Source: a virus
Taxonomy: Duplodnaviria; Heunggongvirae; Uroviricota; Caudoviricetes
Virus record (IMG/VR): IMGVR_UViG_2740892431_000003
Length of the DNA: 8,594 nucleotides
Reading direction: 5' to 3' (one strand)
The notes under the pieces were generated by a model that had not been told where the DNA came from, ran no database searches, and worked only from the letters and a program-made list of their open reading frames with translations. Below are positions 3,324 through 8,216 of the stretch, one piece after another (position 1 is the first letter of the stretch; the number at the start of each line of letters is the position of its first letter). The translations under genes were made by a program, and so were the position numbers.

Positions 3324-4223
3324 TTACTTCATTCTGAAGACGCGTTGTGTCGTTGTTGTTTTGAATTTTTCGAATAACTCAGGGTGTACTGACTGGAATA
3401 GCTTCTGGTCGAATCTGTTGCTGATCTGAGATTTCCATGTGCAGAGCGGCTTTCCGTCCAGGGTCAGGACTGAGTGCTCTTGCATGTACATCTTCAGCTT
3501 CTCTTCTGATATAGCTATTTCTTCTTCCAGTGATTTTCTGCGTGATTTCATGTCTCGTAGATCGTTGAATAGTGCGAGTGCCTTTCCGTCAGCCTCGATA
3601 CTTGTCCCGGCATCTTTCTCAAACATCAGCGATACATCGCTTACGCTGGTAGCTTCCGGCGGGTTAAGATTTTTCACTCGGTCCCAGAAAGCGATTTCTT
3701 TTTCTAAGATCGCCTGGATAGTTTCTTCATCACGCTCAACCCGATAGATTCGGAAGTCGTCGCCACCGATAAGCACACCGAAAACGCATACCTGTTTGTT
3801 TGTAACCATCAACCCGTGCATGGCCTGGGCCGTGTAATGCACAGGAATTGCATCTGTCTGGATTTCTCCCCATTCTTTGGCTTTGAACGGACTAACTGTT
3901 TTGATCTCAATGTTCTCGCCTGACGCTGCTTCTGCATCGATCTCAGCTGCAATAAAATCGTAATCACGGTGGATATAGCGGTTTCCGCGATGAACGATTT
4001 CCATCCCTGTTTCCTCAGAAAGCAGGTCTATTACGTATGGCTCCATACGCTGGCCACGCGTGAAAACTTTCTGCTTGCTTGGGTCTACTGGTTTGACACG
4101 TGGCTGGACCTTATCCAGATAAACCTCAAGCGGGGTGCGCCATGGGCTAATTCCAAGAATCCCTGCAACATCGCTTCCTCCGATGTATTTTGTTCTATCC
4201 ATGATTCCAGCGTTCCGCATCAT
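3324..4223 (-). CDS. YqaJ-like (lambda Exo-like) 5'-3' exonuclease, recombination partner of RecT
   Basis: Sits immediately upstream of recT in the same operon. The N-terminal region (…YIGGSDVAGILGISPWRTPLEVY…, later …YYTAQAMHGLMVTNK…) fits the YqaJ viral recombinase fold. ATGA overlap with the upstream gene's stop; an internal ATG 21 nt downstream is an alternative start. Confidence 0.8.
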   Translation of the reverse strand: MMRNAGIMDRTKYIGGSDVAGILGISPWRTPLEVYLDKVQPRVKPVDPSKQKVFTRGQRMEPYVIDLLSEETGMEIVHRGNRYIHRDYDFIAAEIDAEAASGENIEIKTVSPFKAKEWGEIQTDAIPVHYTAQAMHGLMVTNKQVCVFGVLIGGDDFRIYRVERDEETIQAILEKEIAFWDRVKNLNPPEATSVSDVSLMFEKDAGTSIEADGKALALFNDLRDMKSRRKSLEEEIAISEEKLKMYMQEHSVLTLDGKPLCTWKSQISNRFDQKLFQSVHPELFEKFKTTTTQRVFRMK

Positions 4224-4519
4224 GCCGCGTCCCTCTGCCCATCAAGCTGATCCGCCAGATCCCAGCGCGCTATAATTGCCATTGCCTCGCGCCGGTAGGC
4301 ATCCATCAGTTCTTCGAACTCAGGGCTGTCTTTAGCAGCCTCCAGCACTTCCTGACGAACGCCTTTGCCTGTTACAACGTCGAAAGTTGAGGACAGTTGA
4401 TGAAGTCGGATGCTCTCAATCAGTTCAACTTGTCGGTCATATAGCTGTTCTGACAGGCGGTAGTCCTTGTCGAATGCCAGCATGATTTTTTGAAGATTTT
4501 TCTGCTGATTAACGTTCAT
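4220..4519 (-). CDS. hypothetical protein (100 aa), second gene of the leftward operon
   Basis: Strong RBS GGGAGGG 6 nt upstream of ATG 4519; its stop overlaps the exonuclease start. Translation MNVNQQKNLQKIMLAFDKDYRLSEQLYDRQVELIESIRLHQLSSTFDVVTGKGVRQEVLEAAKDSPEFEELMDAYRREAMAIIARWDLADQLDGQRDAA. No family recognised. Confidence 0.5.
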   Translation of the reverse strand: MNVNQQKNLQKIMLAFDKDYRLSEQLYDRQVELIESIRLHQLSSTFDVVTGKGVRQEVLEAAKDSPEFEELMDAYRREAMAIIARWDLADQLDGQRDAA

Positions 4520-4521
4520 TA

Positions 4522-4674
4522 TCAGCCCTCCCATATCTCGTTATCGTTGGCTACATCGCGAGCTTCTTTGCTGACGAAAGCCCACTTAATGCCTTCCTGT
4601 AAGGTGCGGAACTTCCAGCTCATGAATCCGCATGCAGTAACGCAGTACCAACCGTTGATGATTTTCCACTGCAT
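4522..4674 (-). CDS. small Trp/Cys-rich protein (50 aa), promoter-proximal gene of the leftward operon; absent from the ORF track (below length cutoff)
   Basis: Hand translation: MQWKIINGWYCVTACGFMSWKFRTLQEGIKWAFVSKEARDVANDNEIWEG. RBS GAGGT lies 9 nt upstream of the ATG, and the stop TGA sits 2 nt before the next gene's ATG. It occupies the position of lambda N/cIII/kil-type small early genes. Confidence 0.4.
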   Translation of the reverse strand: MQWKIINGWYCVTACGFMSWKFRTLQEGIKWAFVSKEARDVANDNEIWEG

Positions 4675-4692
4675 AACTTGTTACCTCGGTCT

Positions 4693-4771
4693 GTTACCGT
4701 TGAGGTAATAATTATGCGTATTTGGTTTGATGTCAATAGATATGAGTTAAAAAAATTACCCATTAGGTAAT
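4693..4771 (-). promoter_or_regulatory. Leftward early promoter (pL-like) with two flanking 17-bp palindromic operators (OL)
   Basis: Operators GTTACCgttgaGGTAAT (4693-4709) and ATTACCcattaGGTAAT (4755-4771). On the minus strand a -35 TTGACA (complement of 4731-4736) is followed ~17 bp later by an AT-rich -10 (AATTAT) that overlaps the 4693-4709 operator. Confidence 0.5.
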
Positions 4772-4780
4772 AGTATAGGC

Positions 4781-4805
4781 AATAAAAAAGCCGCCAGAAG
4801 GCGGC
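4781..4805 (-). terminator. Rho-independent terminator downstream of the repressor gene
   Basis: Minus-strand RNA would form GCCGCC-UUCU-GGCGGC followed by UUUUUUAUU (plus strand 4781-4805 reads aataaaaaaGCCGCCagaaGGCGGC). Confidence 0.7.
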
Positions 4806-4827
4806 TTACTTACTGAAAAGTATGATT

Positions 4828-5412
4828 TTATTGTTTGTTTTTTTCGTTCTGGTTGATGACAAATTCAATGTAACTTTCGATCTTTGCTTTCTCGGTTTCG
4901 GGTAACAATGCGTAGCGCGAGCGGTCATAGTTGATGGTCGCAGGGTCGTGCGGGTGAATCAGTAATTCATAGCCGTGACGCCCGAATGCGGATGCAACAT
5001 TCTCCAGGGTGGAAATGGAAACGCTGACCTCATTGTTTAACAGGCGACTGATTGTCACCTGGGCGACGCCGGATGCGCGGTGAAGTTTTCCCTGCGTTGA
5101 AAGGTCGCGGCTTTCGCTCATCCAGCGTTCCAGGTTGTGAGCCGCCAGCTGACCAATGTCGCTTGGGCCGACAGGCTGAAAACCTTCCTGAGAAAGCGAG
5201 CGATCGATATCAAGCCAGTTACGGGGTTTATTGGCGGCAGCTTCAATTTTTCGTGCAACCTGGTCGCCGATAACCTTCTTGCCAAGAGCCCAGCGGTTTA
5301 CCAGATTTGCCTGAGTTCCAAGTTTTTCTGCCATCCGCGTCTGAACACCATTGAATTCACGGTCGATCAAGTCGTTGAGATTTTGCCTGCGGACGTCCTG
5401 GATACTTTTCAT
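4828..5412 (-). CDS. Prophage repressor (CI-like role) with two tandem XRE-type HTH domains and no S24 peptidase domain
   Basis: First HTH roughly …VQTRMAEKLGTQANLVNRWALGKKVIGDQVARKIEAAANKPRNWLD; second roughly …LHRASGVAQVTISRLLNNEVSVSISTLENVASAFG. Placed between the divergent operator-bearing promoters, followed by its own terminator. The C-terminus has no Ser/Lys peptidase motifs. Confidence 0.7.
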   Translation of the reverse strand: MKSIQDVRRQNLNDLIDREFNGVQTRMAEKLGTQANLVNRWALGKKVIGDQVARKIEAAANKPRNWLDIDRSLSQEGFQPVGPSDIGQLAAHNLERWMSESRDLSTQGKLHRASGVAQVTISRLLNNEVSVSISTLENVASAFGRHGYELLIHPHDPATINYDRSRYALLPETEKAKIESYIEFVINQNEKNKQ

Positions 5413-5466: not shown

Positions 5467-5531
5467 ATTACCCAACAGGTAAATGCACCTCATAGGTAAC
5501 TATCCTTGATTTTTGTTACCTTATGGGTGAA
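5467..5531. promoter_or_regulatory. Immunity-region operators (OR) in the divergent promoter region between the repressor and the Cro-like gene
   Basis: ATTACCcaacaGGTAAA (5467-5483), abutting weaker site TGCACCtcataGGTAAC (5484-5500), and GTTACCttatgGGTGAA (5515-5531). A candidate -35 TTGATT (5505-5510) for the rightward promoter sits just upstream of the third site. Confidence 0.55.
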
Positions 5532-5797: not shown

Positions 5798-5819
5798 TAT
5801 CCAGCTACAACCCTCTGTA

Positions 5820-5844
5820 GACCGCCACCCGGCGGTCTTTTCAT
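5820..5844 (+). terminator. Rho-independent terminator after the Cro-like gene (tR1-like position)
   Basis: GACCGCC-accc-GGCGGTC stem-loop (5820-5837) followed by TTTTCAT. Confidence 0.55.
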
Positions 5845-5947
5845 ATCTATTCGTACCTCAAAGGTAATAAAAAACCAAATCTGGTTGATCTTTTTTTTGT
5901 GTCAGCACAAAATGACCGTAACCCCAATACTAATAGCAGGGCTTACC

Positions 5948-6148
5948 ATGGAAATCATTACACGTATTGATGCCGCAAAGCGCGGACTTAAACGCTACTA
6001 CACCGGAAAACCATGTAAGCATGGACATGACAGTGAACGCTGGGTTTACAACGGACACTGTGTTGAGTGCACCATGGAATCAAACCGTCGCATCAGGGCA
6101 GAGATTAAGCAGATCATGATTAATTCCTCCCCACAACACTCAAGCTGA
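5948..6148 (+). CDS. small putative zinc-binding protein (67 aa) at the cII-equivalent position
   Basis: MEIITRIDAAKRGLKRYYTGKPCKHGHDSERWVYNGHCVECTMESNRRIRAEIKQIMINSSPQHSS carries a C-x-H-x-H … H-C-x2-C cluster. I chose the ATG at 5948 over the upstream ATG at 5912; neither has a strong RBS. Confidence 0.45.
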   Translation: MEIITRIDAAKRGLKRYYTGKPCKHGHDSERWVYNGHCVECTMESNRRIRAEIKQIMINSSPQHSS

Positions 6149-6163
6149 TAGCGGAGATTAATC

Positions 6164-6997
6164 ATGAGCAGACATGCAACAGATTGGGCCTGGGAGACAG
6201 ATCCAGGTAGCTCATCATTAAAGCTCATACTGCTCTCGATGGCTGACAGAGCCGATGAATATAACCTCTGCTACCCCAGCATAGAACGCCTCGTTAAAGA
6301 CACTTGCCTGAATAAAAAAACCGTGCAGGCCGGGCTTATATCGCTCATGAAAATGGGGCTTATTTCAGATACCGGAGAGAGAAAGGGAGCGACAAAAAGA
6401 GTGCGGGTTTTCTCTCTTAATATAACCAAAAACGGGAACATTAAAGGCAACCGGGAGGGGGGCAATGAACCCGAAAACGGTAATGTTACCGAAAACGGGA
6501 ATATACCCAAAAACGGGATGTTGAATGATCCCAAAAACGGGATGTTGAATGATCCCAAAAACGGGATCCAGAACCAGTCATATAACCAGTCATTTAACCA
6601 AGAGAGGGAGAGCAGGACAAAAACCGGGGATTCTGTTCCTCATGACCCCGGCGCAAACAACGCCGTGATGAATAACTTTGTTCCTCCTGGTGGGCCAGGG
6701 CAATTAGGTAAATTTGTCATGCATGAACAATGGCAGCCATCAGATGACTTTCTTCGGAAAAGCTCATTGCAGGGAATCTACCTGGACAGTCTGCCAACGG
6801 CACAGGAACTTGCAGAGTTCAGAATTTACTGGATGGCTGAGGGTAAGGCATACCATCAGGCACAGTGGGAGCAGAAGCTGGCAAGGCGCATCCAGTTCTG
6901 TAGACAGAAATCAGGTGAAGTCAGAAAGAGCCTTGACTGGCATAACACTGACTGGATAGATGAGGTGTGGGATGAAATCAACTCCAGAACTTCTTAA
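6164..6997 (+). CDS. Replication initiation protein (lambda O-like; N-terminal winged-helix DNA-binding domain, low-complexity iteron-encoded linker)
   Basis: N-terminus MSRHATDWAWETDPGSSSLKLILLSMADRADEYNLCYPSIERLVKDTCLNKKTVQAGLISLMKMGLISD is typical of phage replication-initiator HTH domains. It sits directly upstream of, and overlaps, the P-like gene and contains the iteron array. RBS GGAG precedes the ATG. Confidence 0.7.
   Translation: MSRHATDWAWETDPGSSSLKLILLSMADRADEYNLCYPSIERLVKDTCLNKKTVQAGLISLMKMGLISDTGERKGATKRVRVFSLNITKNGNIKGNREGGNEPENGNVTENGNIPKNGMLNDPKNGMLNDPKNGIQNQSYNQSFNQERESRTKTGDSVPHDPGANNAVMNNFVPPGGPGQLGKFVMHEQWQPSDDFLRKSSLQGIYLDSLPTAQELAEFRIYWMAEGKAYHQAQWEQKLARRIQFCRQKSGEVRKSLDWHNTDWIDEVWDEINSRTS
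6425..6571. repeat. Iteron array (putative phage origin of replication) embedded in the O-like gene
   Basis: At least six direct repeats with core (A)CC(C)(A/G)AAAACGG(G/T)A starting near 6426, 6470, 6488, 6506, 6530 and 6554, at 18-24 bp spacing. This includes a perfect 24-bp tandem duplication (6506-6529 and 6530-6553). A second short direct repeat AACCAGTCAT(A/T)T follows at 6572-6600. Confidence 0.6.
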
Positions 6998-7790: not shown

Positions 7791-7869
7791 ATTACCTACT
7801 GGGTAATAAAATATTCTAAAATCTATTGATTTAGTGTCTTATGTGGTTTTTAATTACCTCAGGGGTAAA
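7791..7869 (+). promoter_or_regulatory. Third operator-flanked sigma70-like promoter upstream of the DUF1064-like gene
   Basis: Operators ATTACCtactgGGTAAT (7791-7807) and ATTACCtcaggGGTAAA (7853-7869) bracket -35 TTGATT (7826-7831), a 17-bp spacer and -10 TTTAAT (7849-7854). The downstream operator overlaps the -10 and start region; RBS AGGGG precedes ATG 7872. Confidence 0.5.
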
Positions 7870-7871
7870 TC

Positions 7872-8216
7872 ATGAGAAAACAGATACAGGCTCTTGGTCG
7901 ACTCAAAACAGGCCAGATGAACAAAACAGAATCTGCGTATTGCCAGCACCTTGAGCAGCGTAAACGTGCAGGGGAAATCGCCTGGTATCGGTTCGAGGGT
8001 ATCAAGCTGCGGTTAGCTGATAACACGTTTTATACGCCAGATTTCGCTGTGATGCTCGCCACCGGCGAGATGGAACTGCACGAAGTGAAAGGTTTCTGGA
8101 CCGACGACGCCAGGGTGAAAACCAAAGTCGCCGCAGATCAGTATCCGTTCCGAATCATCGGGGTAACGGTTAAACCAAAGAAAGCAGGTGGCGGCTGGAA
8201 CATCGAAGAGTTCTGA
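7872..8216 (+). CDS. DUF1064-like phage protein with a PD-(D/E)xK nuclease-type motif (putative endonuclease/resolvase-like)
   Basis: …ESAYCQHLEQRKRAGEIAWYRFEGIKLRLADNTFYTPDFAVMLATGEMELHEVKGFW…QYPF resembles the conserved core of small phage DUF1064 proteins (D…E.K signature) as I recall them; not verified by search. Confidence 0.5.
   Translation: MRKQIQALGRLKTGQMNKTESAYCQHLEQRKRAGEIAWYRFEGIKLRLADNTFYTPDFAVMLATGEMELHEVKGFWTDDARVKTKVAADQYPFRIIGVTVKPKKAGGGWNIEEF

Follow-up and report, generated by a model that had tools for sequence, protein, structure and literature searches.

A census of lambdoid Rec modules distinguished four non-homologous anti-RecBCD types and left 43 of the 246 modules without one (PMC12315714). 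The GamS isoform of lambda Gam (98 aa; PDB 2UUZ and 5MBV) is a small, acidic, all-helical protein; it dimerises, has long helices at its N-terminus and carries acidic side chains that mimic DNA (PMC5218532). [quoted passage not shown] In phi80 (JX871397), the acidic 93-aa protein GamL (phrog_1050) is encoded 7-8 nt downstream of Mog (Agt/Mog, phrog_1376), and the recombination genes, RecT and then Exo, follow it immediately. The phi80 Agt protein bears the GenBank label "modifier of Gam, anti-toxin for Gam," and gamL is annotated as toxic without Mog and as having SbcCD as a second target; these functional statements on GamL and Mog come from the GenBank annotation and PMC12315714. Other small proteins occupy comparable places: kil lies upstream of the Rec genes in lambda, P22, phi80 and Rac (KilR), the FtsH inhibitor cIII (C3 in P22) is also encoded early on the left, and the small Rec-module proteins Abc2, Abc1 and Arf of P22 modify RecBCD or assist the annealase.

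The window (the whole stretch of 8,594 nt that was analysed) is from an E. coli prophage of the phiV10/epsilon15 type. An earlier note on this DNA described two uncharacterised promoter-proximal genes, here termed ORF-A and ORF-B, which are coupled to a downstream exo/recT pair and occupy the slots of host-takeover genes in lambda and P22. This description was borne out in all of these respects, and the slots are likewise those of host-takeover genes in phi80: both genes lie on the minus strand within the interval given for them (Table 1), 2 nt separate the ORF-A stop from the ORF-B start, an ATGA overlap joins the ORF-B stop to the exonuclease start, and the downstream pair consists of a YqaJ-type exonuclease and RecT. 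The terminator between the repressor gene and the two genes sets repressor transcription apart from the early-left operon. The putative leftward promoter matches the consensus at 10 of 12 positions, and its two hexamers, as well as the flanking palindromes at 4756..4770 and 4694..4708, are kept in an alignment of five phages. Seven sites of the form TTACC-N5-GGTAA occur in the window against 0.18 expected, and the epsilon15 record has repressor-binding sites annotated in the interval that matches the upstream palindrome.

Table 1. Features of the early-left region in the window, from the repressor gene to recT.
Feature	Position	Strand	Remarks
Repressor gene	5412..4828	-	followed by the terminator
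Intrinsic terminator	4788..4807	-	8-bp stem with 6 GC pairs, plus T run; terminator also annotated in phiV10
Operator-like palindrome TTACC-N5-GGTAA	4756..4770	strandless	upstream of the -35 hexamer
Leftward early promoter, putative	4708..4736	-	TTGACA 4736..4731, 17-nt spacer, AATTAT 4713..4708
Second operator-like palindrome TTACC-N5-GGTAA	4694..4708	strandless	from the last -10 base across the expected transcription start
ORF-A, 50 aa (phiV10 p39, epsilon15 gp37, phrog_898)	4522..4674	-	orphan small protein; ATG 4674, TGA 4524..4522; GAGG 4687..4684, 9 nt upstream of the ATG
ORF-B, 99 aa (phiV10 p38, epsilon15 gp36, phrog_856)	4220..4519	-	acidic, predicted all-helical, candidate diverged Gam-type protein; ATG 4519, TGA 4222..4220; GGGAGGG 4532..4526, 6 nt upstream of the ATG
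YqaJ-type (lambda-Exo-like) exonuclease, 299 aa	3324..4223	-	PF09588, E 2.7e-23
RecT-family single-strand annealing protein, 340 aa	2292..3314	-	PF03837, E 4.4e-57

ORF-A and ORF-B are real, conserved and unnamed genes. Both are annotated as CDSs in phiV10 and epsilon15 under the label "hypothetical," which is also the PGAP product name; the claim that ORF-A had been missed by the ORF track is thus correct for the track that accompanied the note. PHROGs places each of them in a family of "unknown function," that of ORF-B being distinct from phrog_1050. Of the described "100-aa acidic protein with a very strong RBS," the acidity (pI 4.7, net charge -6.4) and the ribosome-binding signal hold, and the length becomes 99 aa: a mechanical ORF list starts at an upstream ATG (4534) and so arrives at 104 aa, but the shorter call is better because the relatives, often with GTG, start at the position of 4519, as does the phiV10 annotation. 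Comparisons among five divergent phages put dN/dS at 0.10-0.32 for the ORF-B pairs with computable dS (8 pairs) and at 0.04-0.45 for 9 of 10 ORF-A pairs, the tenth giving 0.94 with a dS of only 0.33; in codons 1-26 of ORF-A, dS is 0.2-2.5 vs a dN of 0.02-0.11. Both genes are under purifying selection. In seven divergent homologues, the sense frame of ORF-A is the sole frame that is open in all. An overlapping antisense ORF or RNA element behind this conservation was rejected: antisense stops occur in some homologues, the sense-frame substitutions are synonymous, and Rfam gives no match.

Of 5,426 complete E. coli genomes, 559 carry the two genes, and ORF-B also occurs in prophages of Salmonella, Klebsiella, Enterobacter and Citrobacter. 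The same 36 phage records hold both of them, and they also co-occur in 62 of the 64 distinct contexts of a survey of 168 loci with 64 distinct ORF-B sequences, and in 7/7 species-representative genomes found from the ORF-A side. The two genes remain coupled, either through a spacer of 2 nt or through an overlap of 4 nt. At all 168 loci, an exonuclease and RecT lie directly downstream of ORF-B. The exonuclease is either of the YqaJ family or of the unrelated DUF3799 family, even beside 100% identical ORF-B, and a 31%-identical ORF-B homologue directly precedes RecT. ORF-A follows the type of repressor and operator.

The 50-aa product of ORF-A, which begins MQWKIINGWYCVTACGFMSWKF, is predicted to be soluble and to form a beta-hairpin, a third strand and an amphipathic helix. 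Its AF2 model has a pLDDT of 55 and was left out of the fold search. Pfam, NCBIfam and PADLOC gave no match, and a profile search of the PDB returned a chance match to mucolipin alone. A membrane peptide was discounted at a 19-residue Kyte-Doolittle maximum of 0.57, and a metal or disulfide motif on finding L/R and S in homologues in place of C11 and C15; the term "Cys-rich" accordingly carries no functional weight. The resemblance of the N-terminus to cIII, which had been suggested from the MQ-aromatic start, likewise did not survive comparison: despite the similar size and early-left place, BLASTP gave no alignment, hhalign gave a probability of 0.5%, the cIII phmmer query scored the ORF-A family at background (median 0.4 bits), and the amphipathic helix of ORF-A and the cIII core do not line up. 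ORF-A resembles the Kil proteins in being a tiny early-left protein upstream of Rec genes, but shows no sequence similarity to those of lambda, P22, phi80 or Rac. In comparisons of sequence and structure with the proteins tested, no recognisable relative was found. The only lead on its function is position, by analogy with KilR (phrog_294, E 6e-21), which stands in the ORF-A slot in two relatives (2/64 contexts).

ORF-B is a small, acidic protein like GamS, and its AF2 model begins with a helix of 36 residues at the N-terminus and continues with further helices. Fold searches with this model returned generic helical hairpins and not Gam, and the helical dimer with protruding N-terminal helices was not recovered. 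Curated models are silent: hmmscan against Pfam gave nothing even at E<=10, and neither NCBIfam nor PADLOC, a library of defence-system models and not of anti-defence proteins, gave a match. The ORF-B profile found only 34 proteins among 1.84 billion representatives, so the family is narrow. Scores against P22 Abc1, Abc2 and Arf, Rac RacC and RecE, and lambda Ea10, Ral and Orf63 were at background; Abc2, Abc1 and Arf remained there in both hmmsearch and hhalign, and they lie on different sides of the annealase gene.

At standard thresholds, the statement that ORF-B has no clear homology to the early-left proteins of lambda and P22 is upheld; below them, a weak similarity to Gam emerges that appears to be non-random. 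Against 177,635 PDB sequences, the ORF-B profile ranks GamS (5mbv_A and 2uuz_A) at 3-4 and gives it the top single-stretch match, with 14.3 bits and an E of 0.32 that is not significant alone. The alignment is colinear (ORF-B 31-86 to GamS 33-90) and is confined to the C-terminal half; the N-terminal helix, by which Gam enters RecB, is without similarity. Lambda Gam is also the highest match outside the family among 4,505 phage ORF translations, and only 4 of 20,000 shuffles of Gam reach its score. In the opposite direction, a phmmer query with GamS scored 70 ORF-B proteins at a median of 9.5 bits (maximum 15.5) and 35 GamL proteins at a comparable 11.9 bits, vs a median of -1.3 for the other 3,602 ORFs (best 11.6, second-best 7.4), with ranks 1-31 held exclusively by Gam, GamL or ORF-B. 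Reversed GamS gave ORF-B a median of 0.75 bits, and 30 GamS shuffles gave medians of at most 3.0. Profile-profile comparison, like Pfam, fails to link ORF-B to Gam at accepted thresholds (hhalign probability 3.7-10.9%); a diverse Gam-family profile is not feasible, as most of the known Gam homologues share 80% identity or more. GamL resembles the N-terminal half of GamS and ORF-B the C-terminal half, and between GamL and ORF-B hhalign (1%) detects no similarity.

The gene neighbourhood points in the same direction. The location of ORF-B, in an early-left operon and adjoining the exonuclease and annealase genes, is that of the Gam family. Furthermore, in 13 of the 64 distinct relatives, a homologue of phi80 Agt/Mog (319-341 aa, 45-69% identical to phi80 Agt) lies 7-8 nt before ORF-B, just as Mog precedes gamL in phi80, and ORF-B thus stands in the exact slot of GamL; among the species genomes, Mog/Agt directly precedes ORF-B in 3 of 7. 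When Mog sits between the two genes, ORF-A stays and is coupled to Mog, and beside some ORF-B genes ORF-A is replaced by KilR or by an unrelated 43-aa ORF. The protein in the slot after Mog varies with the annealase: GamL occurs with Bet or RecT plus Exo, and proteins of 65 or 60 aa occur with Erf. Mog/Agt, without which phi80 gamL is annotated as toxic, does not precede ORF-B in the window, phiV10 or epsilon15, and its absence from the phage of the window counts against a Gam-type role; the window and the phiV10 and BUCT711 genomes contain no further homologue of Gam, GamL, Abc2 or Mog. Among the roles that had been listed as candidates for the two genes, that of a host-nuclease inhibitor (gam) thereby gains real support for ORF-B from the weak similarity to GamS and the arrangement resembling Mog-gamL.

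The distribution of Chi sites bears on this assignment. Unlike lambda, the genomes that carry ORF-B are enriched in Chi: phiV10 has 8 sites on one strand and 0 on the other, more than any of 1000 synonymous-codon shuffles (mean 1.94, maximum 7), and the split between strands is 6:0 in epsilon15 and 4:0 in BUCT711. The Chi depletion that accompanies Gam-type phages is thus absent from these three genomes. Phages that lack a RecBCD inhibitor typically show co-oriented Chi enrichment, and Chi depletion is a correlate of such an inhibitor and not its definition (PMC12315714). The enrichment argues against a full block of RecBCD by ORF-B.

Taken together, these observations make it quite possible, if still somewhat short of probable, that ORF-B is a new and very diverged protein of the lambda Gam type. 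A feasible model is that, once repression is lifted, transcription from the leftward promoter runs through ORF-A, ORF-B, the exonuclease gene and recT, which form a single unit with coupled translation. ORF-B would belong with lambda Gam and phi80 GamL, as a highly divergent relative or, failing that, as a protein of closely similar function: small, acidic, helical and probably dimeric, it may bind a host enzyme that works on the ends of double-stranded DNA, with RecBCD as the most likely target. Blocking RecBCD would spare the exonuclease/RecT pair and the linear intermediates of replication and packaging from degradation. ORF-A would be a separate, lineage-specific soluble protein of 50 aa that is the first product of the operon and probably acts on a conserved host protein, from a slot that is the place of Kil-type division inhibitors in related phages.

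ORF-B could instead be an accessory factor of phage recombination comparable to Arf or Abc1 of P22, aiding RecT or the hand-over from exonuclease to RecT. RecT is always near ORF-B, with a YqaJ exonuclease, a DUF3799 exonuclease or nothing between them, the translational coupling of ORF-B to the exonuclease implies balanced co-expression, and the Chi-rich genomes suggest that RecBCD is not silenced; the dependence of the small protein after Mog on the annealase family would fit annealase-specific cofactors too. However, the apparently non-random similarity of ORF-B is to Gam and not to Arf, Abc1, Abc2 or RacC, the link with Mog indicates a gamL slot, and the swap of exonuclease family beside 100% identical ORF-B makes it unlikely that ORF-B partners specifically with the exonuclease, so that this explanation appears unlikely on balance. 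It is rather less credible still that ORF-A and ORF-B form a two-protein unit, in which ORF-A modulates or neutralises ORF-B, in the way that Mog modifies GamL, or acts with it on one host target. Such a unit would account for their nearly constant association and conserved coupling, but the insertion of Mog between the genes, the coupling of ORF-A to Mog and the replacement of ORF-A by KilR or the 43-aa ORF speak against it, as do strongly different evolutionary rates (identity of 70-85% for ORF-A vs 45-53% for ORF-B); since ORF-A follows the repressor and operator type, the linkage may just mirror shared lineage.

Anti-defence genes are often found in early promoter-proximal slots, and an acidic, helical protein such as ORF-B might be a DNA mimic or anti-defence protein directed at a target other than RecBCD (e.g., SbcCD, a restriction enzyme or a defence nuclease), with ORF-A as an unrelated lysis-lysogeny regulator. 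The second target annotated for phi80 gamL and the Chi-rich genomes agree with this, but ORF-B is strictly tied to Rec genes and not to variable accessory regions, the defence-system models of PADLOC give no match, and a cursory look revealed no CII-type partner for a cIII-like role of ORF-A; the combination seems quite improbable. It is also conceivable, at rather long range, that ORF-B is derived from Gam and redirects or partly disarms RecBCD without silencing it, that ORF-A is a new small host-targeting effector, and that the Mog-adjacent slot, which holds GamL, ORF-B or the 65-aa or 60-aa protein, is a cassette of interchangeable modulators of end processing that suit the type of annealase. 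Such an activity would account for a Gam-like gene beside selected, co-oriented Chi sites.

RecBCD inhibitors determine the survival of phage linear DNA, and several defence systems sense them, including retrons, OLD and Gabija (the latter two according to recent preprints). These inhibitors also increase quinolone sensitivity (PMC5218532). If ORF-B is of the Gam type, it would constitute a fifth anti-RecBCD sequence type, which about one tenth of complete E. coli genomes carry and which current annotation fails to show. The very strongly conserved 50-aa ORF-A adds to this operon a protein without a known relative, and the occurrence of a Gam-like gene together with selected Chi sites provides a concrete test of the rule "inhibitor or Chi, not both."

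The window derives from a temperate podophage of the genus Uetakevirus (phiV10/epsilon15 group) and represents its integrase, early-left, immunity and replication region; it shares 97.9% identity with phiV10 across approximately two-thirds of its length. On the minus strand, the repressor gene is followed by a terminator, a promoter, ORF-A (a short early gene; phiV10 p39, epsilon15 gp37), ORF-B (an acidic early gene; phiV10 p38, epsilon15 gp36), an exonuclease gene and RecT. Two TTACC-N5-GGTAA palindromes flank the promoter, and repressor-binding sites are annotated in the matching interval of the epsilon15 record; therefore, this is the repressor-controlled leftward early promoter. Seven such palindromes occur in the window, against 0.18 expected. 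Two of the other five lie on the rightward-promoter side of the repressor gene, one lies past a terminator (5819-5838) and ahead of an ORF at 5885, and two precede the DUF1064 gene at 7872, so that the repressor, judging from these motifs, may control approximately four promoters. Annotated repressor sites are also scattered across the epsilon15 genome.

Features of the early-left region, and Chi octamers of phiV10
Feature	Position	Strand	Product
Repressor gene	5412..4828	-	
Intrinsic terminator after repressor gene	4807..4788	-	
Sigma-70-like promoter, TTGACA-17-AATTAT	4736..4708	-	
TTACC-N5-GGTAA palindromes flanking leftward promoter	4756-4770 and 4694-4708		
ORF-A	4674..4522	-	50 aa
ORF-B	4519..4220	-	99 aa, pI 4.7, net charge -6.4
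Further operator-like TTACC-N5-GGTAA palindromes	5468-5482, 5516-5530, 5853-5867, 7792-7806, 7854-7868		
Chi octamers, phiV10 (whole-genome coordinates)	6746, 10214, 12016, 15190, 15605, 17437, 18811, 27791		

Two further features lie to the right. A CxxH...CxxC zinc-ribbon-like motif (KPCKHGHDSERWVYNGHCVEC) is present in the small ORF at 5885-6148 (+), past the rightward terminator; related loci encode a similar protein, and in phiV10 the ORF is annotated as hypothetical (p42). Iteron-like tandem repeats at 6469-6600 (18 bp x2.8, 24 bp x2.6 at 100% match, and 12 bp x2.4) fall within the DnaT-like replication-initiator gene (6164-6997) and encode a repeated KNG motif of its product; by analogy with lambda O, they may mark an origin inside the initiator gene.

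ORF-A and ORF-B are annotated CDSs in phiV10 and epsilon15, each as a "hypothetical protein," and comparison of five phages from four host genera shows purifying selection on both. The dN/dS ratio of ORF-A is 0.04-0.45 in nine of ten pairs (0.94 in the tenth, where dS is only 0.33), and that of ORF-B is 0.10-0.32 in the eight pairs with computable dS; in ORF-A codons 1-26, dS is 0.2-2.5 vs. a dN of 0.02-0.11. The ORF-A sense frame is the sole frame open in all seven divergent homologues, and an Rfam search of the ORF-A region gave no match. GAGG lies 9 nt upstream of the ORF-A ATG, and GGGAGGG lies 6 nt upstream of that of ORF-B, within the final ORF-A codons. The coupling to downstream genes proposed in the earlier note is borne out by the 2 nt between the ORF-A stop and the ORF-B start and by the ATGA overlap of the ORF-B stop with the exonuclease ATG. 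The proposed size of ORF-A (50 aa) stands, whereas that of ORF-B (100 aa) becomes 99 aa from the conserved start. A 104-aa version in a mechanical ORF list is the less likely call, because its upstream ATG is not conserved and relatives start at the 4519 position, often with GTG. In the RefSeq record of Enterobacter phage Tyrion, an antisense 70-aa ORF (gp39, locus L006 3251-3463) is called instead of ORF-A, and the conserved sense-strand ORF-A (L006 3347-3496) is left without annotation.

The gene pair is widespread, real and without functional annotation, and its description as uncharacterised holds. By tblastn, both genes occur in an identical set of 36 phage records (Escherichia, Salmonella, Klebsiella and Enterobacter), ORF-A being more conserved (70-85% identity) than ORF-B (45-53%), and 559 of 5,426 complete E. 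coli genomes contain DNA of the pair, both genes being hypothetical in their PGAP annotation. Pfam, NCBIfam and PADLOC gave no match to either, even at E<=10; PHROGs assigns them to phrog_898 (ORF-A) and phrog_856 (ORF-B), both of unknown function, and no publication on the two genes turned up in the literature. When 1.84 billion representative proteins were searched with a profile, only 34 ORF-B relatives emerged, and the family is therefore narrow and confined to Enterobacterales. Seven species-representative genomes reached from the ORF-A side all have the order repressor, ORF-A, (Mog), ORF-B, exonuclease, RecT, one of these contigs stopping just past Mog, a 319-341-aa coiled-coil protein 45-69% identical to phi80 Agt (E down to 1e-118).

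ORF-A is an orphan protein under strong constraint. Thirty distinct sequences share W3, G8, T13, G16, M18, S19, K21, L25, W31 and F33; both Cys are replaceable, and no hydrophobic stretch is of transmembrane grade. Turns at 7-8 ([N/D]-G) and 15-16 ([C/S]-G), with strand-type amphipathicity at 13-19 and helix-type at 22-33, suggest a beta-hairpin, a third strand, an amphipathic helix and a variable tail; an AF2 model (pLDDT 55) was unusable. The faint resemblance to lambda cIII raised in the earlier note did not survive, since profile and single-sequence comparisons with cIII were at background, as they were with C3, four Kil proteins, Ral, Arf, Abc1/2, RacC and YdaE/F/G; the profile gave only a chance match in the PDB. 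ORF-A is invariably the first gene past the operator/promoter of phiV10-type immunity and is coupled to the next gene, whether ORF-B or Mog. Two prophages with a different, S24-type repressor carry an unrelated 126-aa ORF and KilR (phrog_294, E 6e-21) in its place, and lambda, P22, phi80 and Rac each carry a kil gene upstream of the Rec genes. By this analogy, a Kil-like role against the host would be the best guess for ORF-A, albeit a doubtful one.

ORF-B was classified by context in 168 loci (64 distinct sequences). The orders are ORF-A, ORF-B, DUF3799 exonuclease, RecT (41 sequences); the same with Mog after ORF-A (12); ORF-A, ORF-B, YqaJ exonuclease, RecT (8), and this with Mog (1); and KilR, ORF-B, DUF3799, RecT (2). 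The exonuclease family switches (PF09588 vs. PF12684) even between loci with 100% identical ORF-B; therefore, ORF-B is tied to the recombination module and not to one exonuclease. A 31%-identical homologue directly precedes RecT, and a borderline one precedes a Sak4-like AAA_24 ATPase. The main rival to a Gam-type role, namely that ORF-B is a recombination-accessory factor, is considered unlikely. A mosaic breakpoint lies at the ORF-B/exonuclease junction (4220-4223): loci with identical ORF-B have either a YqaJ exonuclease and a separate RecT, as in the window, or a DUF3799 exonuclease. In the phiV10 locus L001, 2354-4114 is annotated as a single 586-aa RecE-RecT fusion CDS.

In the phi80 GenBank record, agt is annotated as "anti-toxin for Gam; Mog (modifier of Gam)" and the next gene, gamL (93 aa), as "host RecBCD/SbcCD enzymes inhibitor; toxic without Mog," with RecT and then Exo downstream. 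The gap between Mog and the next gene is 7-8 nt in phi80-like and ORF-B loci alike; thus, ORF-B sits in the gamL slot. In a set of 79 phi80-like Mog loci, this slot holds GamL (50), a 65-aa phrog_7311 protein (approximately 25) or a 60-aa phrog_1723 protein (4), and the choice among them follows the annealase type, GamL accompanying Bet or RecT plus Exo and both shorter proteins accompanying Erf. At least four unrelated small proteins, counting ORF-B, thus occupy it; PHROGs lists Mog as of unknown function. An unnamed, conserved early-left protein of approximately 53 aa (MNVVYKGKEYRVSKLACGYEWKFV...; phrog_6396; L016 1445-1606 and L008 192-353) is found in one relative between ORF-A and Mog, and elsewhere ahead of the most distant ORF-B homologue; by eye, its sequence resembles phi80 PHI80_44.

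Pairwise BLASTP of ORF-B with lambda Gam gave 10/33 identities (E 0.002 for that single comparison), and hhalign gave a probability of 3.7% with a narrow and 10.9% with a diverse alignment. Against 177,635 distinct PDB sequences, the diverse ORF-B profile ranked GamS, the lambda Gam isoform (5mbv_A, 2uuz_A), 3-4 at E 0.32; the two entries above were summed weak repeats, and GamS had the top single-stretch score (14.3 bits; ORF-B 31-86 on GamS 33-90). Among 4,505 ORF translations from all retrieved phage loci, lambda Gam was the best non-family match (12.3 bits vs. 8.6 for the next), a score reached by 4 of 20,000 Gam shuffles. Reciprocally, phmmer with GamS placed only Gam, GamL and ORF-B proteins at ranks 1-31, with medians of 9.5 bits for ORF-B (n=70), 11.9 for GamL (n=35) and -1.3 for the other 3,602 ORFs (best 11.6, second-best 7.4); reversed GamS gave an ORF-B median of 0.75 bits, and 30 shuffles gave medians <=3.0. 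Composition therefore does not account for the signal, which is as strong as that between Gam and GamL, an accepted RecBCD inhibitor with a predicted fold similar to Gam (PMC12315714). The match of GamL is to the N-terminal half of GamS and that of ORF-B to the C-terminal half. GamS, nearly equal in length to ORF-B (98 aa vs. 99 aa), forms an acidic dimer that mimics DNA and has long N-terminal helices (PMC5218532). phiV10, BUCT711 and the window contain no further homologue of Gam, GamL, Abc2 or Mog.

The host-nuclease inhibitor among the roles listed in the earlier note thus gains from the sub-threshold GamS similarity and the gamL-slot position, but Chi enrichment speaks against a full block of RecBCD. 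phiV10 has eight Chi octamers, all on a single strand (8:0), where a dinucleotide null expects 1.44 and synonymous-codon shuffles within genes average 1.94 (maximum 7; 8 never reached in 1000 trials). Epsilon15 has 6:0 on the same strand as phiV10 (35 kb examined), and Klebsiella phage BUCT711 has 4:0; the window has none, and near the Rec module Chi was seen only in the int gene, approximately 2 kb away. Of 102 lambda-type modules having a RecBCD inhibitor, only 8 have Chi (PMC12315714, Table 1); should the phiV10/epsilon15 group obey the same rule, Chi would count several-fold against a Gam-like total block. Co-oriented Chi enrichment despite a full exonuclease/RecT module is itself unusual by the lambdoid census (PMC12315714). 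It is possible that Chi acts on incoming DNA ahead of ORF-B synthesis, that ORF-B modulates RecBCD and does not silence it, or that its target is a different end-processing enzyme. We tentatively favor, at slightly short of an even chance, the reading that ORF-B is a new and very divergent protein of the Gam type that acts on the host's processing of double-strand ends.
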